Assembly (NCBI GenBank): GCA_943788985.1
Contig: CALSSJ010000035.1
Span: 1 to 43,740, forward strand
Length of the DNA stretch: 43,740 nucleotides
Source of the DNA: an uncultured Lentisphaerales bacterium
GTDB taxonomy: Bacteria; Verrucomicrobiota; Lentisphaeria; JABSQK01; UBA12247
Direction of reading: 5' to 3'
Every line of letters begins with the position of its first letter. Positions within the stretch are counted from its first letter, which is position 1. Under the pieces are notes generated by a model that did not search any database, was not told the origin of the DNA, and saw only the letters and a list, made by a program, of their open reading frames with translations. A program made the position numbers and the translations under genes. Positions 7,318 to 42,895 of the stretch are shown here, piece by piece.

Positions 7318-7320
7318 ACG

Positions 7321-7787: not shown

Positions 7788-7958
7788 AACACCTATCTGC
7801 GCGGAATATCGGCACGCAGCAGGAAGGGAGGACGGCCGGGCCAGCTGGCCCGGCCGTCCTCCCTTCCGTTTCTTCGCCGTCTCCGCCCCGTTTCCTTGAA
7901 TACCTCATCCCGTCAGCGTATCTTGGCTGTATCGGGAAAAAGCAATTTCCTATCAGTT
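7788..7958 (+). mobile_element. IS91/ISCR-like element 3' (ori) end only
   Basis: Matches the last 171 nt of 10784-11640 and 28405-29683; includes the 46-bp palindrome and ends GCAATTTCCTATCAGTT. Confidence 0.85.
7822..7867. repeat. Perfect 46-bp palindrome in the IS 3' region (also 11504-11549, 29547-29592)
   Basis: GGAAGGGAGGACGGCCGGGCCAG|CTGGCCCGGCCGTCCTCCCTTCC is self-complementary. Confidence 0.95.
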
Positions 7959-8073
7959 TGGCCGAGATTTGGCGCGACATCCGCCAACTGACCGCTCGGA
8001 TCAACGATGGCGAGAGTCAGGTGCATCAATCATTCAACATTCAATATTCGATGTCCCCATCTCGAACCTCGAG

Positions 8074-8607
8074 CTACCGGAACCTAATGACCGTCCCTGG
8101 GGGTCCGGACATCGCCACCCCGTAGGTGGGAGTCGCGTTCCGGAGATGAACCCAGCCGATGCCCTCCGCCCAGGCGTAGCCGTCAAACTCCCCGTTCGTC
8201 AGGTTGACGGTCACCTGGCCGTGACTCGGGTTGACGTTGACCCAGCCGGTAGTCTCGCTCCAGGCGTAGCCGGAGAGATTGCCAGCGCCGTCCATGTTCA
8301 CGCCCCAGGTGGTCGGGTCAGTATTGGCGTACGGCCCGCTGCCGGCGCCGGCGCCGAGCTTGATCCAGCCGACGCGCTCCGCCCAGACGTAGCCTTTCAG
8401 GTAGCTGTTGGCGCCGTCCAGCACGACGGTGACGCTGCCGTTGGCATCGCCCCAGTTCTGCCAGCCGGCGGTTTCAGACCAACTGTGCTTGGCGCCTGGA
8501 TCGATGCTGCGATCGTCCGCTGTGGCGACGCTTGCCGCAAGCAACAACAGCGCCATGGCAGCGCTCGCAGATATTCCGTGGCGAACATGAGTGTGACGGC
8601 AAATCAT
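8074..8607 (-). CDS. Secreted Trp-repeat (GYAWSExxGW-type) protein, 177 aa
   Basis: AAGGAG RBS, signal peptide, four repeats (HSWSETAGW, GYVWAERVGW, GYAWSETTGW, GYAWAEGIGW), C-terminal PPGTVIRFR. Confidence 0.75.
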   Translation of the reverse strand: MICRHTHVRHGISASAAMALLLLAASVATADDRSIDPGAKHSWSETAGWQNWGDANGSVTVVLDGANSYLKGYVWAERVGWIKLGAGAGSGPYANTDPTTWGVNMDGAGNLSGYAWSETTGWVNVNPSHGQVTVNLTNGEFDGYAWAEGIGWVHLRNATPTYGVAMSGPPGTVIRFR

Positions 8608-8662
8608 GGTTTTTTTCTCCTTCGTTTGTGTATCTCTGTGGTTTAGGTATATGGAAGTACGG

Positions 8663-9109
8663 TCATGTGGCGGCGCCGGTCCAACGCCAGCCCAGGACAC
8701 GTTCAAAAATGCCGTGGATGCGCCGCTCGGTCTGGTGGATCCAGGCGACGGGTGCCGCGGCGTCCCACAGGAGCCGCTTTGCCAGCATGAGCGCATCCTG
8801 GTGGAAGCGCGCCGGCAACAGGCCCATGCGTGCCCAGAAATCCGCGAGTGAGTGCAGCGGCCCGGCGAAAAGCTCCCAGTGACTGCCGCGCTGGATGACG
8901 ACCGCGTGCCCGGGCAAACAGCGGACAAAGAACTGGCACTGCGCCCGATATGTTTGGGCCGCATACGGAACCGGGCAGCGCAGCGCCACCTGCGTCTCGT
9001 TCCACGCAAAGTACTCCTTCAGCCAGGGGAAGCGCTCCTGCAGCCCGGCAACCAGCCGACGCCAGGCGGCCCGCCGAAAGTGTCCCGAGTAGGACGTCAA
9101 CCACTGCTG
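8663..9109 (-). pseudogene. C-terminal remnant of a DGR-type reverse transcriptase (thumb end plus extension)
   Basis: WLTSYSGHFRRAAWRRL resembles the SYxGHxxHA thumb-end motif of DGR RTs; no start codon and no YxDD core; context of DUF1566 target and MutS-like gene. Confidence 0.65.
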
Positions 9110-9344
9110 CCCGCACCAGCTTGCCCACGTACATGTCCAGGCCTGACTTCGGGAAACCGCCCACCACCACTGGTGCATCCACGTCGCCGGCCATCTTCAG
9201 CTTCAACCCCGTCACTGCCGAGACCTGCCGTGCGTCATCATTCATCACCTGCATGAACGTACCCACCTGCATCAACAACACCGCGTCCGGGTGCGCCGCC
9301 TTCAGGCTCGAATACTGCTCACATAACGTAGTCGAAAATACCAT
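9110..9344 (-). pseudogene. MutS domain I-like small protein (DGR accessory 'MSL' type), cut near its C-terminus
   Basis: EQYSSLKAAHPDAVLLMQVGTFMQVMNDDA...GLKL...GFPKSGLDMYVGKLVRA matches the MutS_I pattern; the expected GxxVA continuation is replaced by RT DNA. Confidence 0.8.
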
Positions 9345-9356
9345 TTTAAAAATCCG

Positions 9357-9389
9357 GCGCTTCGCGCGACCAGGTGGCAAGCCCCCTGG
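9357..9389 (-). promoter_or_regulatory. Two GC-rich hairpins downstream of the variable region (candidate DGR target-recognition stem-loops)
   Basis: Coding strand CCAGGGGGC-TT-GCCACCTGG (9370-9389, one mismatch) and GCGC-GAA-GCGC (9357-9367), about 45-80 nt after the DUF1566 stop. Confidence 0.6.
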
Positions 9390-9434
9390 ACCCCCAAAGG
9401 GTCGAAGCGTTCAAAGGGTCAAAGGGCCGAATCA

Positions 9435-9660
9435 TCATTCTCCGCCGCGGACCGGCCACACATAGAGCGCGTGGGTCTTGCCGGTCCCGCGCCCACGTCG
9501 CCGTAGCCCACGTCCACGTTCCACGCGTAGACGGTATAGCCCGCGTCCGTAGTACTGGACCAGTAGCCCCCCCCCTGCACGCCGCTGAACGGGTGCCCCG
9601 TGGGCAACGCCGGACCGGACGTTCCCGCAGGTCGATCAAGCTGTGCAGTTCTTTCTCCGT
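9435..9660 (-). other. DGR variable region (VR), allele 1
   Basis: Dense substitutions versus 31184-31410, mostly at codon positions 1-2, with invariant 3' TATGTGTGGCCGGTCCGCGGCGGAGAATGA (IMH-like). Confidence 0.8.
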
Positions 9661-10566
9661 CGGCAAGCGCCAGTCGCCAGCGGACGAGCCGTCGCTCAAG
9701 CCCTGCTGCCCGGCCGCCAGGCTGTTGCAGATGCTCAGTGCGTCTGCCCACGTCTCGGTCCCGTCGCCGGCATCCGCGTCCTGCAGCCAGATCAACCCCG
9801 TCAGATTGTCCGTCACTGTTCCATCACTGTTGTCGGTGAAGCGCGGGCTCGGCCAGACCACCCCGGTCTTCAGGTCGCCGTCGTCCCCCGTTGCGTACGA
9901 CGTCGTCTGCCCCGTCTTCTCCACCGCCGCCCCGCTCCCGCCACTGGCGGTGCCGGTGATCTCGGCGCCATCCACCCAAGCCTTCTTGCCGGTGGCGATG
10001 TCGCCCGCCGTGGCATCGCCACTGGACGTGTTCACCACATTGCTGTCCCCGGCCACGCCGAAGATGTTGGCCCCGGATCTGATGTTGCCGCTGGTCAGGT
10101 CGCTGTCTTGCGCCGTGGCGGTCTCCAAGCCGGTGTAGAGGCCGTTGGTGATCGTGATCGTGAGGCTGCCGTCCGCCCCGGTCAACGCATTGCCGGCTGG
10201 CACCGTACCGGTCTGCTGTCCCCAGGCGCCCGCGTCGAGGCCCCAAAAGACCTTGCCGCTGAGCACATCGCCGGCCGTGGCGGCGTTGCCGTTCGCCGCG
10301 GGAGCGGCGCCCATCACGTCGTCCAGTGTCGGCCCCGAGTCGCCCGGCGCGCCGGCGGCGAAGTCACCGGCAGTCGGTTCCTCGAAGGCGCCGGCGCGTT
10401 TGGCGCCGGCGGCACCAGTGTCCAAGCGATTGTAAATGTCTTCCAGATGGTACATGGCGCTGACGGGGAGGTTCGGAGCGGCAGGTGAGTCGGTGTCGCC
10501 AGCCACGGCGACGAAGGCCAGGGTCAAGGCGGTGATTGTGGTACGCGTGGTGGTCCAAATTCGCAT
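9435..10566 (-). CDS. Secreted DUF1566/Lcl C-type-lectin-fold protein, DGR target, copy 1 (small indels in the variable region)
   Basis: Signal peptide; KTGQTTSYATGDDG; RFTDNSDGTVTDNLTGLIW; WADALSICNSL; DWRLPTEKELHSL; across frameshifts YWSSTT...AWNV...YVWPVRGGE-stop at 9435; AGGAGG RBS. Confidence 0.9.
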
Positions 10567-10728
10567 GTGGATGTCCTCCTGTTGATTGTGCTGCGCAACT
10601 GCGCGCGTCTAGTGACGCGCGAGTATTTTAGCCGGCAACACGCCGGTAACAAACGCTTCTGGAAAAAAATTTCCAAGGTTGATGGCTGGTGATCGAGGAA
10701 CGGACCGATCTGCACTAGTCAACCCCGG

Positions 10729-10784
10729 CCTCATCCCGTCAGCGTATCTTGGCTGTATCGGGAAAAAGCAATTTCCTACCAGTT
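10729..10784 (+). repeat. 56-bp IS91/ISCR-type ori end (copies at 7903, 10729, 11585, 29628, 32234, 32371)
   Basis: CCTCATCCCGTCAGCGTATCTTGGCTGTATCGGGAAAAAGCAATTTCCTA(T/C)CAGTT; the TTCCTAT end resembles ISCR oriIS. Confidence 0.85.
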
Positions 10785-11640
10785 ATTCAGCGTTTGCTTC
10801 AGTACATGCTCAGATGCCCGTTCAGCCTGAAGCGCATGATTCAGACCACGGCGGATGGTAATGTTGCCTACCGAGCGACGCGCGAGAAGTGTATCGCCTT
10901 CCCGACCCGCAACGATACTCAGTTCCGTCGTGGTGTGTCGCGCAACTTTGAAATATTCGAGCCGCTCGACTTTATTGCTGAGGTCACGCAGCATATTCCG
11001 GAGCACGGCGCGCAGACAGTTCGCTATTACGGCTGGTATTCAAATAAGGCTCGCGGCATGCGCGCCAAGGCCGCAGAACAGGCAAAGGCAAAGCAGTCTA
11101 ATGGCCTTGAGCCCCTCACCACCGATGAGAGCGATACGCCGTATCGTAAATTATGCCGTATGCGCTGGTCGGCGCTGATTAAACGAGTTTACGAAGTAGA
11201 TCCATTGTGCTGTCCCCAATGTGGCGGCGCGATGACTATCGTCGCGTTCGTTGAGCAGAAGGACCAGGCCGATGTCATTGAGCGTATTCTCAAGCACTGT
11301 CAGCTATGGAATGATTACCCGCCCAGGGCGCCACCCAAGCCAGCCGCCGCTAGTGAATTTGAGCTGGAAGTTGAGTATGTAGACTTCGACGAGTTTCTGA
11401 TGGGTTTCTAAAAGCGCCCCGTCAGGAAGACGGTATCTCAATGCTCAAATTCGCGTATTCTACCTCCAAAACACCTATCTGCGCGGAATATCGGCACGCA
11501 GCAGGAAGGGAGGACGGCCGGGCCAGCTGGCCCGGCCGTCCTCCCTTCCGTTTCTTCGCCGTCTCCGCCCCGTTTCCTTGAATACCTCATCCCGTCAGCG
11601 TATCTTGGCTGTATCGGGAAAAAGCAATTTCCTATCAGTT
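10784..11640 (+). mobile_element. 5'-truncated IS91/ISCR-like element (transposase C-terminal part to 11411, plus ori end)
   Basis: 857 nt apparently identical to 28827-29683; LLQYMLR, VTQHIP, VRYYGWYSN, CPQCGG motifs. Confidence 0.9.
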
Positions 11641-12290
11641 ATCATATTCACACACATGATTACCACTCCTTACCACTGATCCCTCTGGCGGCGTTGGGCA
11701 TTGGTGCGGCAGCAGTGCGATTGCCACAGTGGTGGCGGGAGCAGCGCAAGCAGCTGATCAGCATTGTGGTCGCGGTGTGTGCCATCTACGGCCTGATCAT
11801 CGTTGGTACCTATGCCAAGACCCGAAACGTCAAGACCGTGATGAAGCTGGTTTTTGGCGCGACCGGCATGTCAAAGAAGTTTGTACACTACCTGCGGCCC
11901 AACAAGGCCCACCTGCAGCAACGCATCACCAATGCCAGGGCGATCGGCGAGCATGTGGGGCACTCCACCAACGTGGCATTCATGACCGAGGATTTCGGCA
12001 AATTTCTGCAGTACGAGGGGCAGCTATCTGGCGGGTACTACCCGGAGAAGGGTATTGACGGTGCCGCCGACGGCGAGCCGCCGACAGTTGACGCAATCGC
12101 GGCCTACGTGACCGAGAAGTTTCCCGATGGCCCCGACTATTTCGTAGTCACCGCCGTCAATGCCTACAATCAGCAGGAGACCTTGCGCACCTACCTGGCG
12201 CGGTTTCCGATCCTGGTGCAAGAAGAGGGTTATATGATCTTCGACACGCGCGCCACCTCTGCCCCCATCTCCCCACAGGACCCCAGCTAA
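11640..12290 (+). pseudogene. C-terminal fragment of a membrane protein, ArnT/GT39-like
   Basis: Frame open from the IS junction: YHIHTHDYHSLPLIPLAALGIG, then a TM helix and a soluble domain; stop overlaps the gltX start (TAATG). Confidence 0.55.
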
Positions 12291-13858
12291 TGCGAGTACG
12301 CTTCGCCCCCTCTCCGACCGGAAACGTCCACATCGGCAACATCCGCACCGCCATCTTCAACTATCTCGCCGCCCGCCATGCCGGTGGTGAGTTTCTGCTG
12401 CGCATTGAAGACACCGACCGCGAACGGTCTACGCCCGAGGCCGTGGAGGCGCTCTTCGATGTGATGCGCTGGATGAAGCTGGATATCGACGGCGAGCCAC
12501 TCTACCAGAGCAGTCGCCGCGACGTCCATCTCGAGGCAGCCGATCAGCTGCTGGCCAGCGGTGACGCCTACCGCTTTGCCAAGGGCGACGGCGGCGAGGC
12601 CACGCTGTTGCGCATGCCGTGGGATACAAGCGCCTTGCCATTCGTGCATACGGGCGAAACCGTCTCCCTGACCCTGCACGCGGATGAATCCGTGGTGATC
12701 GACCAAACCGGTGTGGCCTATGCGCTGAAAACCCGCAAGGGGAAAGCAGCGCCCCAGCAGGGGACACTGGCTGGCTTTCAGGACCTTGTCGTCTATGGGG
12801 CAGACGACGCCGAGCTCTTTCGCCTGGATGATGCGAGCGGCTTCATTGCTGGAACCGCCAGTGAGACCATTGCGGGCGCCGTACGCATGACCTTCACGCG
12901 GCGTGAAGTCGCGTTTGACGACTGCGTCAAGGGCCGCCTCAGCAAGCCAATCGACAGTATGCGCGACCAGGTCATTGTACGCAGTGATGGCAATCCCGTG
13001 TTTCACCTGGCCAATGTCTGTGACGACATCGTCATGGGCATCACCCACGTGATCCGCGGCGATGACCACGTCGAAAACACCTTTCGCCACGTGTTCCTCT
13101 ACACCGCGCTGGGCGCCGAGCTGCCGCAGTTTGCGCATTTGCCCATGATTGTCAACCAGCAACGCAAGCCGTACAGCAAGCGCGACGGCGATGCCTATGT
13201 GGGGGACTTTCGGGACAAGGGCTACCAGGCCGACGCCTTATTCAACTACCTGGCGCTCTTGGGCTGGTCCCCAGGCAACGATGTCGAGTACATGAACCGC
13301 GACGAGCTGGTGACCGCGTTTACCCTCGATCGCGTGCTCAGCTCCTCGGCACAGATGGACCATCGCAAACTCCTCGACTTCAACGGCCGCTATCTGGCCG
13401 ATCTCCCCGCTGCGGAGTTCGCAACCACCGCCTGGGAGCTTGCTGCCCATTACGACTGGTCAACCGGCGTGGAGCGCGGCTATTTTGACGCGGTCGCTGC
13501 GTTGCTACAAACCCGCACCAAGCTGTACACCGACATCGCCGGCGGGGAGCCCTACTTCATTGATGCCATCGCGTACGATGAGAAGGCGCAGCGGAAGTTC
13601 TTGAGCAAGCCCGATAACCAGGCGGCCCTGGCTGCATTGGCCGATCGCCTGGCTGAGCTCGCTGACTTTGCCCCTGGCAGCATTGAGGCCGCGGTTCACG
13701 CCACGACCGAGGCGGCCGAGATCAAGCAGGGCAAGCTCAACCAGCCCATTCGCGTGGCCCTGACCGGCCAGACCATGGGCGCCGGCATCTACGAAACCGC
13801 GGCGCTGCTCGGCCGCGACCGCTGCCTGCACCGCCTCCGGCAGGTCGCAGCAAGCTGA
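12290..13858 (+). CDS. gltX: Glutamate--tRNA ligase
   Basis: RVRFAPSPTG, HIGN (HIGH), LRIEDTD, ITHVIRGDDH, KPYSKR (KMSKS variant), anticodon domain PIRVALTG. Confidence 0.95.
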   Translation: MRVRFAPSPTGNVHIGNIRTAIFNYLAARHAGGEFLLRIEDTDRERSTPEAVEALFDVMRWMKLDIDGEPLYQSSRRDVHLEAADQLLASGDAYRFAKGDGGEATLLRMPWDTSALPFVHTGETVSLTLHADESVVIDQTGVAYALKTRKGKAAPQQGTLAGFQDLVVYGADDAELFRLDDASGFIAGTASETIAGAVRMTFTRREVAFDDCVKGRLSKPIDSMRDQVIVRSDGNPVFHLANVCDDIVMGITHVIRGDDHVENTFRHVFLYTALGAELPQFAHLPMIVNQQRKPYSKRDGDAYVGDFRDKGYQADALFNYLALLGWSPGNDVEYMNRDELVTAFTLDRVLSSSAQMDHRKLLDFNGRYLADLPAAEFATTAWELAAHYDWSTGVERGYFDAVAALLQTRTKLYTDIAGGEPYFIDAIAYDEKAQRKFLSKPDNQAALAALADRLAELADFAPGSIEAAVHATTEAAEIKQGKLNQPIRVALTGQTMGAGIYETAALLGRDRCLHRLRQVAAS

Positions 13859-13859
13859 G

Positions 13860-15083
13860 TCAGTGGATGGCGAGCGCCGGGATTGCGGTGACGCATTTCG
13901 CACCCCATTCGCGGGTGTAGCTCAACTGCTCGACAATCTCTTGACGAAGATTCCACGGTAAAATCAGGATGTAATCAGGCTGGGTTTCCCGGAGTGCCTC
14001 TTCGCTGACAATGGGAATGCGGCTTCCAGGCAGATAGCGTCCTTGCTTGGCAGGATTTCGGTCGACAACAGAGGAGATCAGATCTGGCCGAACGCCGGCG
14101 AAGTTGAGGAGAGTGTTGCCTTTTGCAGCTCCGCCATACCCCACGACACGCTTGCCCTCCTTGTGCTGCGTGATCAGGAAGTGCAGCAAGTCGTTCTTGA
14201 TACTTTCAACAGCCGCCTGAAAGCCACGGTAGCCGTCTTGGCAATTGACCTTGCGGGCCTGCTCCGCTTGGAGCGTCTGCTGCACGCGCTCGGTCGGAAC
14301 TTGGTTACCCGCTTGATGCTGGGCGTAGACACGAAGACTGCCACCGTGAACCGGCAATGGCTCGACGTCGACAACATGCAGGCCGTTGGTCTTGAGGATA
14401 TGGGACACGGACGTCAGGGACAGGTAGGAGAAATGCTCGTGGTAAATGGTGTCAAATTGGATATCCTGCAGCAGATTCGCCAACGATGGAAACTCAAAGG
14501 TCACGACGCCGGTATCATGAAGCAGTGCTGCGATTCCCTGGATGAAGTCGTTGATGTCGGGCACATGGGCAAGCACGTTGTTGGCGGCGATGAGATTCGC
14601 TGGCCCAATACGGGCGCGCAGATCTGAACCGGTCCCCTTGCCGAGGAAGACCTCTTCAATATGCAGCCCTTTGGCCCGCGCGGCGGCGGCGGTACTGGCT
14701 GTTGGTTCGATGCCAAGGCACTCAATGCCCTCGGAGTGCACATAGTGGAGCAGGCTGCCATCGTTTGCAGCGACTTCAATGAAGCGATGCCCAGGCTGCA
14801 GCAAACCGCGGGTCAGGCAGGTCTGCACGTATGTACGACAGTGCTCAAACCAGGTGCTTGAGAAGCCGCTGAAATACGCGTAATCGGCCGTAAACAGATC
14901 ATCTGCCCTGGCAAAATCAGCAGTTTGTACAAGCCAGCAGCTATTGCAGACGAGAACACGCAGTGGTAGCCAGTGTTCCGGTTGCTGCAGCGATTCCGGC
15001 TGCAGGTATGCATTGGACGGGGGCGCGCTTCCGAGATCAACAAGCTGCTGTGTGAGCGGTGCCTGGCAATGCCTGCAATTCAT
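13860..15083 (-). CDS. NDP-sugar C-methyltransferase (Zn-binding, class I SAM)
   Basis: MNCRHC, CNSCWLVQ, EVAANDG, QFDTIYHEH, HGGSLR, GAAKGNTLLN, ILPWN. Confidence 0.9.
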   Translation of the reverse strand: MNCRHCQAPLTQQLVDLGSAPPSNAYLQPESLQQPEHWLPLRVLVCNSCWLVQTADFARADDLFTADYAYFSGFSSTWFEHCRTYVQTCLTRGLLQPGHRFIEVAANDGSLLHYVHSEGIECLGIEPTASTAAAARAKGLHIEEVFLGKGTGSDLRARIGPANLIAANNVLAHVPDINDFIQGIAALLHDTGVVTFEFPSLANLLQDIQFDTIYHEHFSYLSLTSVSHILKTNGLHVVDVEPLPVHGGSLRVYAQHQAGNQVPTERVQQTLQAEQARKVNCQDGYRGFQAAVESIKNDLLHFLITQHKEGKRVVGYGGAAKGNTLLNFAGVRPDLISSVVDRNPAKQGRYLPGSRIPIVSEEALRETQPDYILILPWNLRQEIVEQLSYTREWGAKCVTAIPALAIH

Positions 15084-16704: not shown

Positions 16705-16724
16705 GAGGCGGGCAGCAGTCCTAC

Positions 16725-17495: not shown

Positions 17496-17672
17496 TCAGA
17501 GATTCCTAGGCATTATCAGAGTAGATGTAGGGATACCTTACACATGAAGCCAAAAGAGCAAGTGCTTTCCATGGATTGACGGCTTGCAATGGCCCTCGCA
17601 GCCTGTCGGAGAGGCGGTCTTTGGAATCGCATGTATGTTGCCAACCCTGAAACCGGTGCTTCTCTTGATCCT

Positions 17673-19979: not shown

Positions 19980-19995
19980 TTCGATCACGATATCG

Positions 19996-22355: not shown

Positions 22356-22375
22356 GTCGCGGGGCTCGATCCGTC

Positions 22376-23401: not shown

Positions 23402-23507
23402 TAGAAGCCCTGATAGAAGAAGGGACTTCCGCTCTTACCGAGGGCGACCACCGCAGCAAGCCTCAGCGCAACCCACAGGATGCGTATCGCAATCTTATAC
23501 GCTGGCT

Positions 23508-24641
23508 TCATGGTGCCTTCCCGACCCAGTACAAGGAACAAGCGACGAATTCAAACGTGATCACTGTAGCCACGACACGAACAACCGGATGTGCATTGTA
23601 GCGCTTGAACCACTTCTTACCATAACGCCGGATGAGGATCGTCTTGTACGCATTGCAAATCACAACGCCTCCCGCATGAATCGCCCCCCAGAGAAAAAAT
23701 GGCATGGTGAACTGATGCCACAGACCGCAAAGCAAGAATGCCACGCCAAATGCGACTGATGCACATCCCAAGCGGTAGCGGCCCAATCGGGTGCGCATCA
23801 GTGCGAGTTGCACCGGAACGAATAGATGGGCGCGTACAGACTGCCCAAGGGTGATGTGCCAGCGCTCCCAAAAATCGATTACGTTTCGCGCAAGATACGG
23901 ACGGTTAAAGTTTTCGGGAACGTGCAGCCCAAGCAGCATTCCAATGCCAACCGCGACGTCGCAATAGGCGCTGAAGTCGAGGTACAGCCAAATGAAGAAC
24001 AACTGGAGTTCCAAGACTGTATACCACGGTCCTGCTTGAAACCCGGTAAGGCAGACGGATTGGATAATGTGCGCCAACACGAATTTCTTGAACAGCCCCT
24101 TGGCGATTCGTTCCGTTGACGAGAGTCCCTTATGAAAGGTGAGAGGGGGGCAGGAAATCGGATGATCAACGTAGTCACGATACGTCTGGATTGGACCAGC
24201 CGACAGCATATGGAAGGGAATCATATAGTGGATGAAATCCAGTGGCGACGGACATGCCGCCACGCCTGCACGGATCGTTCGTACGAGATCTACCCATCGA
24301 AGAAACACGTACGAATAGCCAGTAATCGCCAGAAGTTCCTGGCCGCTCACTGAGCGGATTGCTGGCAGGGTGCCCAACTTGAATCCGATAAACACCGCCA
24401 ACGCTGGAGCAATCAGCGCGATCGTGGGCGAGCCCACTCGCAACGCGACATACGCTGTCACCAGCGCCCCCAGCAGGAGGGCCGTACCGGTTCCCCCAAC
24501 CGCCCAATAGAGCACCAACAGGTGTACACATACCACCATCACCAGACGGTGTCGCGGCTGGCGAAGAACCGTGACAGCAAACACACCGCTTATGGTCAGA
24601 AACCAAAAGCCGATTGAGAAAAGTTCGATTCCGGCAGTCAC
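23508..24641 (-). CDS. MBOAT-family O-acyltransferase (AlgI/DltB-like)
   Basis: GYSY, AGPI, GLFKKFV, YLDFSAYCD, PENFNRPY, FWERWHITL, GLWH. Confidence 0.9.
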   Translation of the reverse strand: MTAGIELFSIGFWFLTISGVFAVTVLRQPRHRLVMVVCVHLLVLYWAVGGTGTALLLGALVTAYVALRVGSPTIALIAPALAVFIGFKLGTLPAIRSVSGQELLAITGYSYVFLRWVDLVRTIRAGVAACPSPLDFIHYMIPFHMLSAGPIQTYRDYVDHPISCPPLTFHKGLSSTERIAKGLFKKFVLAHIIQSVCLTGFQAGPWYTVLELQLFFIWLYLDFSAYCDVAVGIGMLLGLHVPENFNRPYLARNVIDFWERWHITLGQSVRAHLFVPVQLALMRTRLGRYRLGCASVAFGVAFLLCGLWHQFTMPFFLWGAIHAGGVVICNAYKTILIRRYGKKWFKRYNAHPVVRVVATVITFEFVACSLYWVGKAP

Positions 24642-24647
24642 GGAATG

Positions 24648-26453
24648 CTATCCAACTACATGCGTCTCGGCCGACAAAGCCTCGTCAAGAGCCAAGTACC
24701 ACCTGCAGGTATCCTGGTCCTCAAAGCCAAGCCGGTCGTATAGATCAGCGACAAGGTTGTTCTTCTTTGTCTGGATATACTCACCCAGCAATCCCTGGTA
24801 GCCTTGTCCGCGGGCACGGTCCACCAGCGTATTCAGCACAAATGCTTCCACCGTGCGGCCGATCACCCTGCAGCTCATTAACCACGTATCAATTCGCAGG
24901 ACATCAGGCGACTCCCGCACTCCGATAAGTACCGCGATCAGACCGTAATCGCCGAAACGATCGGACAGGCTAACAGCAAACGCGATTGTCCCTGGAATTG
25001 CGATCATCGCTTGCAGTTGCTCACTGCTATGCCGCCTGGTCGTCAGGTTAAACTGATTCGTTTTACCTACGAGCTGCGACACGCGGGGCAATCGTGTCTC
25101 ATCAATCGGCACGACAGTCGCCTTCATCTGCAAATGCTGCAAATAGGCGCCCATGTCGGTGAATCCTTGCTCGGCTTCGCGCCGCTCGCTCTCCACCCGG
25201 TACTGCTGGGTACGAAGAAGGTCCTCATCCGTTCGCCGTAAGCTGTCAAATGCCCCCGTTTCAGCCAATGCCAATGTGTAGTCCGCAGGGTCCGGTGGTA
25301 CGTCCACGACCAAGACATCGGGGAGCGCCAAGCGTACTTCCTCGCGTTCGGCAGGATTGTCATCGAAGAAGACGAAACTATCTGCACCAAGCCGCAACTC
25401 GGCGGCGATCTGTCGAATCGACTCGCTCTTGGGCTGCCAACTGGCCTGGAACGCTGCAAAGTCGGCGAGCGTCAAGACCATTTCCGGGTTTCGCTCGAAC
25501 GGCTCGCGAGCAATCGGGTCGTCATTCTTGGAGCAGATCGCCAGCAAGATCCCACGGTCCGTCAGTGCTTTCACGTATCGCTGGAATGCCTCAAACGCCT
25601 CACCGTCCGGACCGCCACCAATGGTAACCCCCAGTGGCCCTTCTTCGGCAACAACGCCTCCCCAGAGGGTATTGTCAAGATCCAGTATCAGCACCTTATG
25701 GGTACCGCGCTGAATAATCTGAACAGTGCGTGCCAAGCCATGTGCCAACTCCGTGAGCCCAGCGTCAGAGTAGGGCTGTTTCGTCCAAAAGTAGTTTCGC
25801 TGGCTGTAGAATTGTTGCTTACCCGTCCACGAAGAAAGGGCGTCTACATCGAACCAGATCGCCGCATCCGGCAGTGTCTTGCGAAGCCCCTGGTTTGCCA
25901 TCCGCACGGCATCCAAGCTACCTCCATCTTGGACGTCAAGATAGAGGCCGTCTGGCGAGAAATACGGCCAATCGAAGCCAACCTGTATCACTGTTGCCTG
26001 TAGCTTTGTTGCCAGCTGCCAGGCGGATCGCCACATCACCGGACTCAAACTTGGGGCAATGGCCTCGCTACCATGCCCCTTCGAATGTGCATGGAGCCAT
26101 GGAATCAGGATTACCGCATCCAGGCGTTTACCGGTCTCCCAAGACGAGAGTGCGGGCATCGTAGAGTCGTACGGCGCTTCGGATACACGTACACACAGTC
26201 CGGCTTCCGCAAGGCGCAAGGAAATCAACGGGGCAAGCCAGCTGGTCGTAACCTGACCGGCCAACAGAATGCTGGCGTCAAGCCTCTCATCCGCAGTTGC
26301 AGCAGTGATCTTTGCACAAAGTCGAGCAGCGCGCGCCCGGGCCAATTCTGACAACTCCCCTTGCAGTGCCTGGCGCAAAGATTGAAACGCTTCAGCAGGC
26401 TCCTCGTTTGACAATGCAGCAGCGGACACCGCGAGCCCCGCCTTGGCCTTCAT
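24648..26453 (-). CDS. FkbH-like HAD-IIIC protein with C-terminal GNAT-like domain
   Basis: KVLILDLDNTLWGGV, CSKND, FFDDNPAER, KTNQFNLTT, DRFGDYGLI, MSCRVIGR. Confidence 0.95.
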   Translation of the reverse strand: MKAKAGLAVSAAALSNEEPAEAFQSLRQALQGELSELARARAARLCAKITAATADERLDASILLAGQVTTSWLAPLISLRLAEAGLCVRVSEAPYDSTMPALSSWETGKRLDAVILIPWLHAHSKGHGSEAIAPSLSPVMWRSAWQLATKLQATVIQVGFDWPYFSPDGLYLDVQDGGSLDAVRMANQGLRKTLPDAAIWFDVDALSSWTGKQQFYSQRNYFWTKQPYSDAGLTELAHGLARTVQIIQRGTHKVLILDLDNTLWGGVVAEEGPLGVTIGGGPDGEAFEAFQRYVKALTDRGILLAICSKNDDPIAREPFERNPEMVLTLADFAAFQASWQPKSESIRQIAAELRLGADSFVFFDDNPAEREEVRLALPDVLVVDVPPDPADYTLALAETGAFDSLRRTDEDLLRTQQYRVESERREAEQGFTDMGAYLQHLQMKATVVPIDETRLPRVSQLVGKTNQFNLTTRRHSSEQLQAMIAIPGTIAFAVSLSDRFGDYGLIAVLIGVRESPDVLRIDTWLMSCRVIGRTVEAFVLNTLVDRARGQGYQGLLGEYIQTKKNNLVADLYDRLGFEDQDTCRWYLALDEALSAETHVVG

Positions 26454-27388
26454 GAGCCCTGTGGCACACAAACAAAGGCGAAGTCCACCGTTGGATCCCG
26501 AGAGGCAGCTGCATAGTCAGCCACCGCGAACGACTGCTCAGCGACCACTTGCAGCCCCGCCTGCTCTAAGACGTCATGCACTTGTGAAATATCAGTGAAC
26601 AGGTGCAAATGATCAATCGCATTCGAATTAGCCACCGTCGTAATGAAAAAGGGCGCCCCCGGTTGAAGAAACGACTGAATCTGCCCAAACGAAAAGACTG
26701 GATCTGGAATGTGCTCCATCACCTCGGCACAGATGGCCCAGCGCAAACTGCCCGACGCGAGGTCCATCGGCTTGCAGACATTGCCGGCGTTCAGTTGATA
26801 GCGATGCTCTGGCAGTCCTGCCTGAGCCAGAAGCCGGCCGGCAAACTGGATCGCATGCTCACTGATATCGTAGCCATGCACAATGCGTTCCTGACTCTCA
26901 AGCAGCAAGTCGTGAAGGTAGAGGCCATGGCCAAAACCAAACTCCGCCCCCACACCCGCGTCGGGCACTCGGCTAAGAAACTCACGTCGATAAAATTTGT
27001 GCATGTCAAAATGAATTGGCCAGAACGCGTGAGAAAGCATCAGCCCGTCGAGATAGAAGCCCAGCATGACATCCGGGTTCGAGTAGACGTTCTCATTCAC
27101 AGTGTCAAAGGAATCATTGCTGTATTCGCCGGTAGCAACGAAGGCTGCCTGTTCCTTCAGGTAGGCGAGCGTGTACTCGAGAATCGCCTCCACTGGTTTT
27201 CCGCCCAATGACTGCGATAGGGCAACAAGGCGTTGGGCTTCCTCCCAGAACGCTTCGCCATGGGTTTCGGCCTGGTACGCGATCTGCTTGGCCAGTAGAT
27301 TGCGCCCCTGTTCCAAGATTCCACTGCAAACTTCAGCGGCCAGCGGATAGTGCGAGGCCGCGTCGGCGATTCTCTCTTCAGTCGTCAT
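26450..27388 (-). CDS. Class I SAM-dependent methyltransferase
   Basis: EFGFGHG, GYDISE, AEVMEHIPDP, IDHLHLF. Confidence 0.85.
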   Translation of the reverse strand: MTTEERIADAASHYPLAAEVCSGILEQGRNLLAKQIAYQAETHGEAFWEEAQRLVALSQSLGGKPVEAILEYTLAYLKEQAAFVATGEYSNDSFDTVNENVYSNPDVMLGFYLDGLMLSHAFWPIHFDMHKFYRREFLSRVPDAGVGAEFGFGHGLYLHDLLLESQERIVHGYDISEHAIQFAGRLLAQAGLPEHRYQLNAGNVCKPMDLASGSLRWAICAEVMEHIPDPVFSFGQIQSFLQPGAPFFITTVANSNAIDHLHLFTDISQVHDVLEQAGLQVVAEQSFAVADYAAASRDPTVDFAFVCVPQGS

Positions 27389-27389
27389 G

Positions 27390-27833
27390 CTAACTCAGGC
27401 TCTCGATGAGTTCAACGGTAATGCCTCGGGTAAACGCAGGCGGGACAAAGTTAATGGCAATTGGGCCGGCAACCACTGGGGTTGGCTCCAGCAACTGTAC
27501 ATCGTTCGCCGCGAGAACCTCGGTGGCCTCGCGGAGGTCATCGACTTCCATGGCGATGTGATGGAGTCCGCCAATGCCCCTATTATGTCGTGCTAATGGG
27601 CTCTCTGGCCCATCAGGAATGACGAGTTCCAGGCATGCCGACTCCGTGCTGGTAAACAGACACCAAGCCCGGTACTGCTCCACGTAATAGCGGCGTTCTA
27701 CCGTTTGTCCGAGTAATCCCAGAAACTCATCACTTGATTCACGGTCCAGGATCACGATTCCGACGTGATGCAACCGCGGAGATAGTGCCTGTAGCGACTG
27801 CGGCAACACCGCTTGGGCTTGGCCCTCAGTCAA
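27390..27833 (-). CDS. VOC-family protein (methylmalonyl-CoA epimerase-like)
   Basis: LHHVGIV, LELVIP, GGLHHIAMEVDDL, VELIE; TTG start overlapping the ACP stop. Confidence 0.85.
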   Translation of the reverse strand: MTEGQAQAVLPQSLQALSPRLHHVGIVILDRESSDEFLGLLGQTVERRYYVEQYRAWCLFTSTESACLELVIPDGPESPLARHNRGIGGLHHIAMEVDDLREATEVLAANDVQLLEPTPVVAGPIAINFVPPAFTRGITVELIESLS

Positions 27834-28069
27834 GCGCTGACTCCTTTCGCGTCCAACAGATCCAGCAACTCTCCGACCGTATCCAGCGTCGCAATCTCTG
27901 TGGACGTAAATCGTACCCCAAATGCCCTCTCGATGTGCACAAACAGAGTGACATGCATCAAGGAGTCCCAATCATCTATGTCGGCCGCAGTCGTTGACCG
28001 GGTAACTTTAATGTCATCATCTTCAAAGACATCACAGAATAGATCATTCACTTTTTGCTGAACGCTCAT
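27830..28069 (-). CDS. Acyl carrier protein
   Basis: 79 aa, acidic, WDSL phosphopantetheine site. Confidence 0.9.
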   Translation of the reverse strand: MSVQQKVNDLFCDVFEDDDIKVTRSTTAADIDDWDSLMHVTLFVHIERAFGVRFTSTEIATLDTVGELLDLLDAKGVSA

Positions 28070-28202
28070 CCCAAATCCTTTGGCTCTCGTATTAGCCCAA
28101 AGACGTTACGCTATTCTTGTTCGACGAATTCGCACCCAGCTCCTATCGAATCTGATGCGCGACACGGTTAATCCCCAAGAGCCCTGGACCACGAGATCGA
28201 CG

Positions 28203-28404
28203 CTACTCGTCCGCGAAGTAGTAGGTCGACACCTCTGGATTGGTGTACGTGTGCTGGCCTGTCAGGGAGATCGCATTGCTCCAAACGGTGTGTCCATCGA
28301 GGAATCCGGTCGTGCCGCCATAGAAGGTATCGCCCAAGTTCGGCGAGGTGGTTGTCCAACCACTGAAGAAGAGATGCGCATCGATCTTGCGATGGGTTCC
28401 AATA
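28203..28404 (-). pseudogene. Possible C-terminal remnant of an H-X9-DG-type (prepilin-associated) protein cut by the IS
   Basis: GGTTGFLDGHTVW resembles the GGNxxFxDGHVxW motif; 5' part abuts the transposase. Confidence 0.4.
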
Positions 28405-29683
28405 CTGTGTTTTACCATGCCGAAACGGTTCCGCGCTTACTTTCGCTATGACCGGGATCTACTCAAGCATCTTCCCCGCCTTGCCTGGGAAACAGTGCGC
28501 GACGTCTACCGTGCCGTGCTCGATCGCGATGACGTTGTTCCCGGCATGGTCGGCGCCCCACAGAGCTTTGGCGATCTAATAAATTGGCAACCGCATATGC
28601 ACACTCTATCCACCGATGGAGCGTTTGCCAAAGACGGCACGTATCTGCCTGTGCCCGATGATCTGCCGATTGAGCCGTTCCTCAAGCTCTGGGAGCACAA
28701 GATCTTTGCATTGCTACTGGCAGAGGGCCGCATCACCGAGAAGGTCGTCGAGCAGATGCGTAGCTGGAGGCACTCCGGGTTCAGCGTTGATAAGAGCGTC
28801 TACCTGCCGGCCGGTGACCAGGCTGCTATTCAGCGTTTGCTTCAGTACATGCTCAGATGCCCGTTCAGCCTGAAGCGCATGATTCAGACCACGGCGGATG
28901 GTAATGTTGCCTACCGAGCGACGCGCGAGAAGTGTATCGCCTTCCCGACCCGCAACGATACTCAGTTCCGTCGTGGTGTGTCGCGCAACTTTGAAATATT
29001 CGAGCCGCTCGACTTTATTGCTGAGGTCACGCAGCATATTCCGGAGCACGGCGCGCAGACAGTTCGCTATTACGGCTGGTATTCAAATAAGGCTCGCGGC
29101 ATGCGCGCCAAGGCCGCAGAACAGGCAAAGGCAAAGCAGTCTAATGGCCTTGAGCCCCTCACCACCGATGAGAGCGATACGCCGTATCGTAAATTATGCC
29201 GTATGCGCTGGTCGGCGCTGATTAAACGAGTTTACGAAGTAGATCCATTGTGCTGTCCCCAATGTGGCGGCGCGATGACTATCGTCGCGTTCGTTGAGCA
29301 GAAGGACCAGGCCGATGTCATTGAGCGTATTCTCAAGCACTGTCAGCTATGGAATGATTACCCGCCCAGGGCGCCACCCAAGCCAGCCGCCGCTAGTGAA
29401 TTTGAGCTGGAAGTTGAGTATGTAGACTTCGACGAGTTTCTGATGGGTTTCTAAAAGCGCCCCGTCAGGAAGACGGTATCTCAATGCTCAAATTCGCGTA
29501 TTCTACCTCCAAAACACCTATCTGCGCGGAATATCGGCACGCAGCAGGAAGGGAGGACGGCCGGGCCAGCTGGCCCGGCCGTCCTCCCTTCCGTTTCTTC
29601 GCCGTCTCCGCCCCGTTTCCTTGAATACCTCATCCCGTCAGCGTATCTTGGCTGTATCGGGAAAAAGCAATTTCCTATCAGTT
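28405..29683 (+). mobile_element. IS91/ISCR-like rolling-circle element, 5'-truncated (HUH transposase to 29454, plus ori end)
   Basis: FTMPKRFR, QSFG...PHMH (HUH), WRHSGFSV, single catalytic Tyr LLQYMLR, VRYYG, CPQCGG; N-terminal Zn-binding domain missing; left boundary approximate. Confidence 0.9.
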
Positions 29684-29802
29684 TTGGCCGAGATTTGGCC
29701 GCCGACATCCGCCAACTGACCGCTCGGATCAACGATGGCGAGAGTCCAGGTGCATCAATCATTCAACATTCAATATTCGATGTCCCCATCTCGTACCTCG
29801 AG

Positions 29803-30347
29803 CTACCGGAACCTAATGACCGTCCCTGAGAGTCCGGGCATCGCCACCCCGTAGGTGGGAAGTCCGCGTTCCGGAGATGAACCCAGCCGATGCCCTCCGC
29901 CCAGGCGTAGCCGTCAAACTCCCCGTTCGTCAGGTTGACGTGTCACCTCGCCGTGACTCGGGTTTGACGTTTGACCCAGCCGGCAGTCTCGCTCCAGGGC
30001 GTAGCCGGAGAGATTGCCAGCGCCGTCCATGTTCACGCCCCAGGTGGTCGGGGTCAGTATTGGCGTGCGGCCCGCTGCCGGCGCCGGCGCCGAGCTTGAT
30101 CCAGCCGACGCGCTCCGCCCAGGCGTTAGCCTTTCAGGTAGCTGTTGGCGCCGTCCAGCACGACGGTGACGCTGCCGTTGGCATCGCCCCAGTTCTGCCA
30201 GCCGGCGGTTTCAGACCAACTGTGCTTGGCGCCTGGATCGATGCTGCGATCGTCCGCTGTGGCGACGCTTGCCGCAAGCAACAACAGCGCCATGGCAGCA
30301 GCGCTCGCAGATATTCCGTGGCGAACATGAGTGTGACGGCAAATCAT
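29803..30347 (-). CDS. Secreted Trp-repeat protein, copy 2 (several frameshifts, probably sequencing errors)
   Basis: Aligns end to end with 8074-8607. Confidence 0.7.
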
Positions 30348-30402
30348 GGGGTTTTTCTCCTTCGTTTGTGTATCTCTGTGGTTTAGGTATATGGAAGTAC
30401 GG

Positions 30403-30854
30403 TCATGTGGCGGCGCCGGTCCAACGCCAGCCCAGGACACGTTCAAAAATGCCGTGGATGCGCCGCTCGGTCTGGTGGATCCAGGCGGACGGGTGCCGCG
30501 GCGTCCCACAGGAGCCGCTTATGCCAGCATGAGCGCATCCTGGTGGAAGCGCGCCGGCAACAGGCCCATGCGTGCCCAGAAATCCGCGAGTGAGTGCAGC
30601 GGGCCCGGCGAAAAGCTCCCAGTGACTGCCGCGCTGGATGACGACCGCGTGCCCGGGCAAACAGCGGACAAAGAACTGGCACTGCGCCCGATATGTTTGG
30701 GCCGCATACGAGAACCGGGCAGCGCAGCGCCACCTGCGTCTCGTTCCACGCAAAGTACTCCTTCAGCCAGGGGAAGCGCTCCTGCAGCCCGGCAACCAGC
30801 CGACGCCAGGCGGCCCGCCGAAAGTGGTCCCGAGTAGGACGTCAACCACTGCTG
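30403..30854 (-). pseudogene. DGR RT C-terminal remnant, copy 2
   Basis: Aligns with 8663-9109; same junction sequence CGGGCAGCAGTGGTTGACG. Confidence 0.6.
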
Positions 30855-31092
30855 CCCGCACCAGCTTGCCCACGTACATGTCCAGGCCTGACTTCGGGAA
30901 ACCGCCCACCACCACTGGTGCATCCACGTCGCCGGCCATCTTCAGCTTCAACCCCGTCACTGCCGAGACCTGCCCGTGCGTCATCATTCATCACCTGCAT
31001 GAACGTACCCACCCTGCATCAACAACACCGCGTCCGGGTGCGCCGCCTTCAGGCTCGAATACTGCTCACATAACGTAGTCGAAAAATACCAT
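30855..31092 (-). pseudogene. MutS domain I-like ORF, copy 2
   Basis: Aligns with 9110-9344. Confidence 0.75.
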
Positions 31093-31102
31093 TTTAAAAA
31101 TC

Positions 31103-31152
31103 CGACCCTTTGGGGGTCCAGGGGGCAAGCCCCCTGGACCCCCAAAGGGTCG
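31103..31152. repeat. Perfect inverted repeat with 24-bp arms downstream of VR copy 2
   Basis: CGACCCTTTGGGGGTCCAGGGGGC-AA-GCCCCCTGGACCCCCAAAGGGTCG. Confidence 0.9.
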
Positions 31153-31183
31153 AAGCGTTCAAAGGGTCAAAGGGGCCGAATCA

Positions 31184-31410
31184 TCATTCTCCGCCGCGGA
31201 CCGGCCACACATAGAACGCGTTGGACTTGCCGGTGCCGTAGCTCACGCTGCCGTAAGTTCACGTACACGCTAAACGCGTTGGCGGCATTGCCCGCGTTCG
31301 TAGTACTGGACCAGTAGAACGACGACTGCACGCCGCTGAACGGGTGCCCCGTGGGGCAACGCCGGATCGAAGTTCCCGACGTCGATCAAGCTGTGCAGTT
31401 CTTTCACCGT
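31184..31410 (-). other. DGR variable region (VR), allele 2
   Basis: Counterpart of 9435-9660; retains several AAC/AAT codons where allele 1 has GAC/TAC/TAT/GGC/CAC. Confidence 0.8.
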
Positions 31411-32072
31411 CGGCAAGCGCCAGTCGCCAGCGGACGAGCCGTCGCTCAAGCCCTGCCTGCCCGGTCGCCAGGCTGTTGCAGATGCTCAGTGCGTTTGCCC
31501 ACGTCGCGGTCCCGTCGCCGGCATCCGCGTCCTTCTGCCAGATCAACCCCGTCAGATTGTCCGTCACTGTTCCATCACTGTTGTCGGTGAAGCGCGGGCT
31601 CGGCCAGACCACCCCGGTCTCCAGGTCGCCGTCGTCCCCCGTTGCGTACGACGTCGTCTGCCCCGTCTTCTCCACCGCCGCCCCGCTCCCGCCACTGGCG
31701 GCTGGCACCGTACCGGTCTGCTGTCCCCAGGCGCCCGCGTCGAGGCCCCAAAAGACCTTGCCGCTGAGCACATCGCCGGCCGTGGCGGCGTTGCCGTTCG
31801 CCGCGGGAGCGGCCGCCCATCACGTCGTCCAGTGTCGGCCCCGAGTCGCCCGGCGCGCCGGCGGCGAAGTCACCGGCAGTCGGTTCCTCGAAGGCGCCGG
31901 CGCGTTTGGCGCCGGCGGCACCAGTGTCCAAGCGATTGTAAATGTCTTCCAGATGGTACATGGCGCTGGCCGGGTTGCTCGGAGCGGCAGGTGAGTCGGT
32001 GTCGCCAGCCACGGCGACGAAGGCCAGGGTCAAGGCGATGATTGTGGTACGCGTGGTGGTCCAAATTCGCAT
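31184..32072 (-). CDS. Secreted DUF1566/Lcl protein, DGR target, copy 2 (frameshifts; 82 aa shorter stalk)
   Basis: Aligns with 9435-10566; C-terminus reads VQSSFYWSSTTNAGNAANAFSVYVNYGSVSYGTGKSNAFYVWPVRGGE after removing single-base insertions. Confidence 0.85.
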
Positions 32073-32152
32073 GTGGATGTCGTCCTGTTGATTGTGCTGC
32101 GCAACTGCGCGTGTGGAGTAAGGCGGGAGTACGGTAGCCGGAAGTACGCCGG

Positions 32153-32426
32153 TAACAAACGCTTCTGAAAAAAATGTCCAAAGTTGATGGCTGGTGATCG
32201 AGGAACGGACCGACCTGCACTAGTCAACCCCGGCCTCATCCCGTCAGCGTATCTTGGCTGTATCGGGAAAAAGAAATTTCCTATCAGTTAACAAACGCTT
32301 CTGAAAAAAAAATTCCAAGGTTGATGGCTGGTGATCGAGGAACGGACCGACCTGCACTAGTCAACCCCGGCCTCATCCCGTCAGCGTATCTTGGCTGTAT
32401 CGGGAAAAAGCAATTTCCTATCAGTT
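32153..32426 (+). repeat. Imperfect tandem duplication (about 137 bp) of the cassette right end including the ori end
   Basis: TAACAAACGCTTCTG...CCTATCAGT occurs at 32153-32288 and again at 32289-32425. Confidence 0.9.
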
Positions 32427-32442
32427 TATCAACAAGGCGTCG

Positions 32443-35529: not shown

Positions 35530-35606
<77 letters not shown>

Positions 35607-42787: not shown

Positions 42788-42895
42788 GGCTGGTAGCTTG
42801 AGGTTGGAAAGTGTAAGAGGGGAAAAGTTGGACCGCGAAAGCGAGAAAGGTGAGAGATTTAAGCTGTGTTCCAGCTGTCGGTTGGGACCACAGCA

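Follow-up and report, generated by a model that had tools for sequence, protein, structure and literature searches.

Rolling-circle insertion sequences (ISs) and diversity-generating retroelements (DGRs) are both well-described systems, and the DNA analysed here is a case of the two known processes meeting, a new pairing of transposon and cargo and not a new mechanism. This DNA, called the window below, is a stretch of 43,740 nt from an uncultured Lentisphaerales bacterium (contig CALSSJ010000035.1, assembly GCA_943788985.1). It carries two copies of what is, judged by its homologues, a DGR locus with an internal deletion; these copies, here called cassettes, each lie between right ends of an element that appears to belong to the IS91 family.

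Transposition of IS91-family elements starts at oriIS, an origin downstream of the transposase gene tnpA, and proceeds through the element; for IS91 itself the last 82 bp suffice as origin, the transposase works in trans, and termination fails or is imprecise in 1–14% of events (PMC13181058). With IS801, right-end fragments (229, 360 and 679 nt) accounted for 26% of the transposition events in the native host, and neighbouring DNA was also carried (Bardaji et al. 2011, PMC3189936). Passengers that start directly past oriIS are the rule for ISCR1 (PMC6218425), and for ISCR28 a ‘sandwich’ has been described in which two oriIS capture armA (Yuan et al. 2024, via PMC12772301).

Remote, non-adjacent DGR targets are also well known, and MutS-like (MSL) proteins, 112–283 aa long, count among the established DGR accessories; targets with DUF1566 make up category ‘d’, architecture D includes MSL, and a Legionella DGR serves as exemplar (Wu et al. 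2018, PMC5758913). In Thiohalocapsa PB-PSB1, DGR loci are duplicated within one genome, and the reverse transcriptase (RT) or the template repeat (TR) has been lost via transposons or arrays resembling miniature inverted-repeat transposable elements (MITE-like arrays). The incomplete loci are diversified in trans, and transposons are proposed either as carriers of DGR parts or as drivers of recombination (Dore et al. 2024, PMC10907252).

The repeats of the window, whose borders and coordinates we took from self-BLAST and direct reading of the junctions, are built around a 56-bp IS right end that occurs six times, always on the + strand and with 98–100% pairwise identity (7903–7958, 10729–10784, 11585–11640, 29628–29683, 32234–32289 and 32371–32426). 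Its 17-nt degenerate core has six matches in the window and none in 100 shuffles. Three of the six copies are the final 56 bp of a 171-nt tail behind a transposase gene or part of one; the remaining three abut non-IS DNA, the region upstream of the cassette’s target gene, with a junction that reads ...CAACCCCGG followed immediately by CCTCATCCCG. Both cassettes begin at the base right after a full IS tail (7958/7959 and 29683/29684) and end in a 56-bp end of their own, and the IS DNA to their left measures exactly 171 nt for copy 1 and about 1,276 nt for copy 2, where it starts at about 28408, corresponding to transposase residue ~124 of 470. An earlier note, made from the sequence alone, had described the start of each cassette after a full origin end, the attachment of the closing end to cassette and not IS DNA, and the varying amount of IS upstream; its coordinates and junctions hold throughout.

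Four units can thus be delimited, each stopping exactly at the IS terminus and each with a different left border (Table 1). U3 is 100% identical to 28827/8–29683 by self-BLAST. U4 is 96–97% identical to both other cassette tails and so is not a fresh tandem copy; it represents a third lineage of the cassette/end junction, which implies at least three events. The cassettes have a G+C content of 63–66% (window 8001–10000 and 30001–32000), compared with 50–58% in the IS and the immediate flanks. Retention of the right end with a variable left border is what IS801 fragments display, at 229, 360 and 679 nt there and at 56, 137, 171 and 856 nt here (PMC3189936).

Table 1. Features of the window (1-based positions; U1 to U4 are the units that stop at the IS terminus)
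Feature	Position	Strand	Basis or remark
C5 cytosine methylase, C-terminal part cut at the unit border (left flank)	7321..7787	-	Pfam DNA_methylase, profile 234-322 of 324
Unit U1	7788-10784		2,997 nt; 171 nt IS tail + cassette + end
IS right-end (ori-side) fragment, 171 nt, left border of U1	7788..7958	+	100% identical to 11470-11640 and 29513-29683
46-nt perfect palindrome in the 171-nt IS tail	7822-7867
56-bp terminal end in the 171-nt fragment	7903-7958	+
Cassette copy 1, internally deleted DGR locus (putative)	7959..10728	genes on -	collinear with 29684-32233
Secreted protein, 176 aa, four GYAW/GW-type repeats, last gene of the DGR operon	8074..8604	-	intact in copy 1
DGR reverse transcriptase, C-terminal remnant, residues ~348-489 of ~499	8684..9109	-	BLASTP/tblastn to L001 and L004 RTs
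MSL (MutS-like) DGR accessory remnant, residues 1-79 of 106-138	9108..9344	-	Pfam MutS_I 4.9e-10
DGR target gene with Lcl_C/DUF1566 C-terminal domain	9435..10566	-	Pfam Lcl_C 3e-16; variable region ~9440-9640
56-bp IS right end joined to cassette DNA, copy 1 (ori2)	10729..10784	+
Unit U3, transposase residues ~263-470 + 229-nt tail	10785..11640	+	856 nt of IS; Y2_Tnp 7.7e-14; tblastn with P0002
Unit U2	~28408-32289		~3.9 kb; ~1.28 kb IS + cassette + end
IS fragment before cassette 2, transposase residues ~124-470 (stop 29454) + tail	28408..29683	+	left border +/-3 nt
Cassette copy 2	29684..32233	-	MSL/RT deletion junction ~30826-30853, as in copy 1
56-bp IS right end joined to cassette DNA, copy 2 (ori2)	32234..32289	+
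Unit U4, third cassette-tail/end junction	32290..32426	+	137 nt; 81-82 nt cassette tail + end; 97.1% to 10647-10784, 96.4% to 32153-32289
Type I restriction R subunit (hsdR) minus ~70 N-terminal profile positions (right flank)	32443..35154	+	Pfam HSDR_N 71-197 of 198 from residue 2

Two open reading frames (ORFs), 28348–29454 and 10749–11411, are Y2_Tnp transposases by Pfam. The longer scores 92.6 bits against the NCBIfam IS91 model (NF033538; cutoff 125), a match restricted to profile positions 90–355 of 356. A 99% identical public transposase of 470 aa (P0002, from a cluster of 82 member sequences) has both Zn_Tnp_IS91 and Y2_Tnp domains and passes the same model with 142.1 bits; against an ISCR clade, for which the cutoff is 925, the transposase reaches 137 bits. 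The profile matches support the placement of the element in the IS91 family (HUH/Y2), where the earlier note had spoken of IS91/ISCR; the note’s likening of the unit to a Helitron does not carry over to protein content, for which Pfam finds Y2_Tnp and no helicase domain. The window transposase contains H-M-H (...WQPHMHTLS...) and Y-x3-Y (...RYYGWYSN...), which are candidates for the HUH motif and the paired catalytic tyrosines.

The IS terminus, as defined by the six copies, lies 229 nt past the transposase stop codon, and the tail holds the 46-nt perfect palindrome together with a weak, interrupted 10-bp hairpin. The nearest annotated relative that we reached is an IS on the Trichlorobacter lovleyi plasmid pIAE1 (transposase 41% identical), the borders of which are set by three full copies within a 50-kb stretch. 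Its right end, ...ATCGAAAAAGCAAATTCCTATTCCT, and that of the window IS, ...ATCGGGAAAAAGCAATTTCCTATCAGTT, share the motif ATCG..AAAAAGCAA.TTCCTAT. Alignment of the last 56 nt gives a score of 11, against -9.3 +/- 4.1 for shuffled sequences, none of 1,000 of which reached 11, and the right end lies at a similar distance from the stop codon (~235 nt in the pIAE1 IS vs 229 nt in the window). The comparison supports the 56-bp end as a genuine right terminus of the IS, and its position downstream of tnpA, as in IS91 (PMC13181058), would make it the oriIS side. On pIAE1, a closed plasmid, a 462-nt right-end fragment is followed directly by a 22-nt solo end, tandem debris of the same sort as U3, U4 and the solo 56-bp ends of the window.

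Two full copies of the related IS on pIAE1 (locus L028; 22333–24138 and 30156–31924) also share the DNA before the transposase gene (24174–25215 and 31960–32992), which encodes an alpha/beta hydrolase and a YoeB-type toxin–antitoxin pair, the pattern expected from one-ended transposition with cargo. The right-end fragment and tandem 22-nt solo end of that plasmid lie at 26995–27474.

The likeness to ISCR elements lies in variable passenger DNA beginning right after oriIS and, for the ISCR28 sandwich, in a second oriIS from a remnant element that brackets the passenger, where the outer origin can carry it (PMC12772301). Here, in contrast, the transposase scores as IS91 family, the second origin would be only 56 bp long, the host is environmental and the cargo is not a resistance gene. 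With IS801 and IS91 the window element would share the HUH/Y2 family, an origin downstream of the transposase gene, a transposase acting in trans and the carriage of adjacent DNA (PMC13181058, PMC3189936). It differs in that the cargo sits between two right ends, where theirs lies past the left (ter) end of a complete IS, in that no conserved border tetranucleotide could be recognised, in a cargo that is a DGR remnant and not a virulence or resistance gene, and in that mobility is here something we infer from sequence. Helitrons of eukaryotes offer similar rolling-circle logic, gene capture via failed termination and non-autonomous copies sharing only termini; they are an analogy only, as the window has neither a Rep/helicase protein nor Helitron termini.

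On the - strand the cassette presents a 406-aa Lcl_C/DUF1566 ORF, a MutS-domain-I ORF, an overlapping ORF in another frame and a 176-aa secreted protein. Genomes, one for each species, were scanned with an alignment built from the target and its homologues, which yielded 27 related loci (325 kb). In the MSL-carrying loci L001, from a metagenome-assembled genome of the Victivallales (target identity 73%), and L004, the intact order is target, MSL (138 aa in L001, 106 aa in L004), a small ORF that is bAvd-like in L004, TR, RT with an RVT_1 domain (499 and 496 aa) and the secreted repeat protein. The MSL remnant of the cassette is 76–77% identical to the MSL of both loci across residues 1–79, and the RT remnant 51–52% identical to their RTs (E 1e-39 to 2e-45). 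The catalytic domain, which occupies residues 69–295 in the L001 RT, is absent from the remnant. At ~9108–9110 the MSL stub is fused directly to the RT stub, so that ~1.93 kb, equivalent to L001 1708–3636, has been lost, and with it the C-terminal end of MSL, Avd, TR and all of the catalytic portion of the RT. Neither the L004 Avd nor the L001 ORF at the same position has a tblastn match in the window. What the earlier note had taken for a dedicated DGR target cassette is thus, by its homology, a whole DGR locus with an internal deletion and not purpose-built; RT, TR and accessory of a complete autonomous DGR appear to be missing from the window. Both copies have the same MSL/RT junction, hence the deletion preceded the duplication, and a protein-level search found the identical junction ORF (P0241) on an independent contig of 75,907 nt, a length also given for the contig of P0122, a further version of the target.

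The small ORF of L001 (1884–2429) is not Avd-like and has no similarity to the L004 Avd; it scores 66.6 bits against a model of REP-associated tyrosine transposases (RAYTs) with a cutoff of 80. Full gene order in L001 and L004, the DUF1566/Lcl_C C-terminal variable-region domain and the MSL gene place the locus with Legionella-type DGRs. It departs from them in that the window copies lack TR, Avd and RT catalytic domain, in the additional secreted repeat protein that closes the operon and, for L001, in the RAYT-like ORF at the expected Avd position.

The secreted repeat protein belongs to no Pfam or NCBIfam family, and the best ESM Atlas score, 0.80, is a lead only. Its homologues stand behind either the target or the RT at 18 of these 27 loci, and the GYAW/GW-repeat protein appears to be a conserved partner of DGRs of this class that has so far gone unrecognised. 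In these 18 loci the ~180-aa protein is encoded on the same strand as the DUF1566 target (the L001 copy at 4177–4764), 72–600 nt after the target when no RT is seen and after the RT when one is present. RT-less operons occur at L002 2409–4149 (target, an RT C-terminal stub of 34–38 aa, secreted protein) and L003 9977–11772 (target and secreted protein, no stub), and further short RT stubs at L010 12535–12630 and L022 2570–2692. Internal loss of the DGR core seems to be recurrent in this family, without an IS91 element nearby. The RT C-terminal remnant (window 8663–9196, -) is matched by 69 representative proteins, most of them 100–300 aa long and covering that region only; fewer than 10 are full-length RTs, and the short ones are maybe contig fragments or stubs. 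A representative library clustered at 50% holds no near-identical full-length master RT, its only 100% match being the window’s own 171-aa ORF, a result uninformative either way.

Copy 2 has a near-perfect palindrome of 50 nt just past the target stop (31103–31152), followed by a T-run. In the copy 1 counterpart (9355–9404) the distal arm carries seven clustered substitutions (9357–9375), which break the long stem and make a small GCGC-GAA-GCGC hairpin.

The variable region (VR), the C-terminal ~200 nt of the target gene, has 28 substitutions between the copies in 201 nt, compared with 13 in the 1,558 nt to its left. VR columns were scored against the TR of a relative, L004, and not the lineage’s own TR; the two VRs of L004 differ from that TR at adenines only (20/20 each). 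The window copies differ at 27 of 176 aligned VR columns, and 17 of these 27 fall on L004-TR adenines, compared with 29 of 149 invariant columns (Fisher p = 1.1e-5). The earlier note’s reading of the target genes as DGR-diversifiable therefore has support and not proof, since 10 of the 27 variable columns lie off adenine and the TR is a relative’s. Further alleles of the gene exist elsewhere: P0123 (376 aa) is intact with the VR allele of copy 2, P0122 combines the N-terminus of copy 1 with a third VR and is frameshifted, and P0124 has a fourth VR on the same gene. One deletion-bearing ancestor thus yielded copies with different VRs, for which rewriting in trans is the simplest reading; diversification after copying, by a complete DGR elsewhere, is likely from these comparisons, with recombination among copies as the alternative source of the different VRs.

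Thiohalocapsa PB-PSB1 is a close parallel, in that the DGR is duplicated, some copies have lost the RT or the TR, incomplete loci still vary and a master DGR in trans is the best fit (PMC10907252). There, ISs with inverted repeats and MITE-like arrays replace the RT, whereas here the IS would be a rolling-circle element of the IS91 family and the internal RT deletion is clean; activity in trans is backed there by TR/VR matching and population data, and read here from the window sequence and its relatives.

The two cassettes are 96% identical; 29 indel events separate them, including a gap of 246 columns from a deletion in copy 2. Copy 2 also has 25 small extra-base events, compared with three in copy 1, and 24 of the 25 fall within 29682–31456 (vs copy 1 7956–9705), from the IS/cassette junction to just upstream of the VR. 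Of 22 single-base insertions in copy 2, 18 duplicate a neighbouring base. Indels outnumber substitutions in 29682–31456, which is unusual for natural decay; no such disturbance is seen in the host genes or in the adjacent IS, where 857 nt are 100% identical. The extra bases are taken as derived because in copy 1 both the secreted-protein ORF and the MSL stub remain in frame, while in copy 2 they are broken. The likeliest cause is a consensus error where the repeat was mixed or had low coverage, with real decay of a dead copy as the alternative; an RT-made copy was rejected as the source, the few substitutions there not being adenine-specific. Contig quality within the repeats limits what can be claimed.

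These insertions would also suit an assembly artefact, in which a strain-chimeric or mis-joined long-read consensus laid one locus down twice, or stitched two together via the IS repeat, so that the differences are noise. Repeats of 857 nt at 100% identity favour such mis-joins, the extra-base events are concentrated left of copy 1 position 9705, the VR allele of copy 2 stands intact on another contig (P0123), and VR frameshifts recur in another contig’s version (P0122). Repeat collapse, however, could not have produced the unique junctions (end to IS-internal DNA, end to cassette tail), the different left borders or the 246-column deletion; the copies also differ by real substitutions (28 in the VR, 29 in the target gene’s 5' portion), the neighbouring host genes are all long intact ORFs, and the MSL/RT junction ORF recurs unchanged on the independent 75,907-nt contig. 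We consider the artefact improbable.

To the view that IS91-type rolling-circle copying of the DGR remnant made the units we give slightly better than even chances. An MSL/Avd-type DGR with a DUF1566 target, of the class for which Legionella is the example, would have lost 1.9 kb (MSL C-terminus, Avd, TR and RT catalytic part), and the remnant would have ended up flanked by an IS right end and, on its opposite side, by a solo right end of 56 bp. A nick at the 56-bp end would then have been made by a transposase acting in trans, the intact 470-aa form of which is known from public data and not from the window. Copying leftward through the cassette into the adjacent IS, with variable stops, would then have given the units of 2,997 nt and ~3.9 kb and, equally, the IS-only and tail-only pieces of 856 and 137 nt; in a sub-variant that is inseparable from leftward copying, the cassette and its end would have moved alone and landed beside existing right ends. 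Subsequently the VRs would have diverged at template-adenine positions, implying a master DGR elsewhere acting in trans, and the units may be active today. The second, outer 56-bp end is needed because the IS’s own origin does not move ori-side DNA. Judged by the IS91 and IS801 literature (PMC13181058, PMC3189936), the four units resemble products begun at a common right end and stopped variably, and a common right end with variable left borders is the pattern of one-ended or abortive rolling-circle transposition (PMC3189936).

Several observations weigh against this history, and the first of them concern the origin and its enzyme. At 56 bp the end falls short of the 82 bp that suffice for IS91, and its hairpin (-6.4 kcal/mol, z = -1.5), equalled by 16 of 200 shuffles, is not significant alone and was dropped as evidence of an origin. 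All six ends close with ...CAGTT, the next base is T, A, A, T, A and T, and the sequences then diverge; the left borders read AACA (2 of 6), ATTC, CCTC and TGGC. Neither the six right junctions nor the left borders show a consensus that would mark a target or termination tetranucleotide, and no direct repeats flank the units. The first 121 residues of P0002 have no tblastn match in the window, so that every transposase copy here is 5'-truncated, and the IS fragment before cassette 2 is without the Zn-finger N-terminus and the left (ter) end. The search for an intact Zn-domain transposase that the earlier note had called for thus found none in the window, where the left (ter) end is also missing, and found the 470-aa P0002 in public data.

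A further set bears on the cargo and on its spread. The window holds no TR, a sensitive BLASTN of both VRs finding only the other copy (next best match 40 nt, 70% identity, E 0.13), and no RT, with no RVT_1 match among the 43 window ORFs scanned. As assembled, each target gene is frameshifted within its VR or close to it, which means either dead copies or a poor consensus; in copy 1, aligned with the intact P0123 (376 aa), the shifts are +2 near 9620–9628 and -1 near 9490, and the ORF runs on to 9346. The window shows two copies of the cassette and a single tail fragment, to which the protein level adds one further contig. The IS transposase or its end is found in none of the 27 related loci, and an exact 22-mer of the end has no match in the species-representative genomes. 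The multiplication proposed in the earlier note is accordingly seen only within the window and on that further contig.

The flanks, finally, fit simple insertions poorly and make recombination a live rival. The N-terminal part of the methylase interrupted left of array 1 does not lie right of 11641, and array 2 has a truncated hsdR on its right and an unrelated gene fragment on its left; the mismatched flanks imply that deletions or recombination took place. Recombination and not transposition may then have made the second copy: a degraded native DGR, peppered with IS fragments, would have undergone homologous recombination or segmental duplication with deletions, the cassette-side 56-bp end being the deletion remnant of a full IS. 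The 857 nt of identical IS DNA are a ready substrate, most natural IS801 fragments stem from reorganisations and not from one-ended transposition according to the IS801 study (PMC3189936), and homologous recombination between transposon copies is one route of DGR duplication in Dore et al. (PMC10907252); just two copies are seen, and no IS in the 27 related loci. Random duplication, on the other hand, would not make similarity end exactly at the IS terminus on the right in four of four units while the left borders differ, and the junctions 10784/10785 (end to internal IS) and 32289/32290 (end to cassette tail) are those expected from repeated insertion beside an existing end. U4 moreover stems from a third lineage and does not repeat its neighbour, and like tandem right-end fragments occur on the closed plasmid pIAE1. 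We regard recombination as an unlikely source of the second copy, though one with an appreciable share of the probability.

Two simpler reconstructions of the insertions were dropped: simple insertions with an empty site, as in neither array do the two flanks add up to a single gene, and a single one-ended unit of 24.6 kb (7788–32426), as the outer flanks, a methylase C-terminal half and an hsdR without its N-terminus, are not contiguous. The arrays stand amid the debris of a defence island (5485–7787 and 32443–35154), comprising an IS1634-family transposase fragment, an AIPR/MzaE-like C-terminal fragment, the truncated C5 methylase and the truncated type I R subunit. A 270-nt IS1634-like stretch (6210–6478) recurs at 42893–43161 with 79% identity. 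Rfam and transfer RNA (tRNA) scans returned only an unrelated tRNA-Ala (35530–35606).

The first interpretation of this DNA is thus partly supported. Its remark that it knew of no described system coupling the two mechanisms needs qualifying: duplication and degradation of DGRs driven by transposons, with orphans diversified in trans, has been published (PMC10907252), and an IS91-family or rolling-circle element named in the role of spreading DGRs was not found in the literature searched. A bolder proposal, which we put forward tentatively and hold to be rather doubtful, is that an IS91 element turned an RT-less DGR remnant into a spreading non-autonomous unit with 56 bp of IS on its outer side, each copy keeping its VR and recognition signals and being rewritten by one master DGR.

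For surveys of DGRs, RT-less loci with RT and MSL stubs are ones that get missed or misread, and hypervariable repeats beside identical IS copies are spots where a long-read consensus may fail. If the rolling-circle history holds, it offers a natural minimal origin of 56 bp for one IS91 subgroup and a concrete route to remote DGR targets, in which a whole DGR is copied, its costly TR/RT core deleted and the target kept under a master; the copying agent would be a rolling-circle IS, a role unnamed in the literature searched. If the bolder proposal were true as well, rolling-circle transposition would determine how many hypervariable surface-protein genes there are and reverse transcription what sequence they have, making for a distributed DGR that enlarges its repertoire of targets by transposition.

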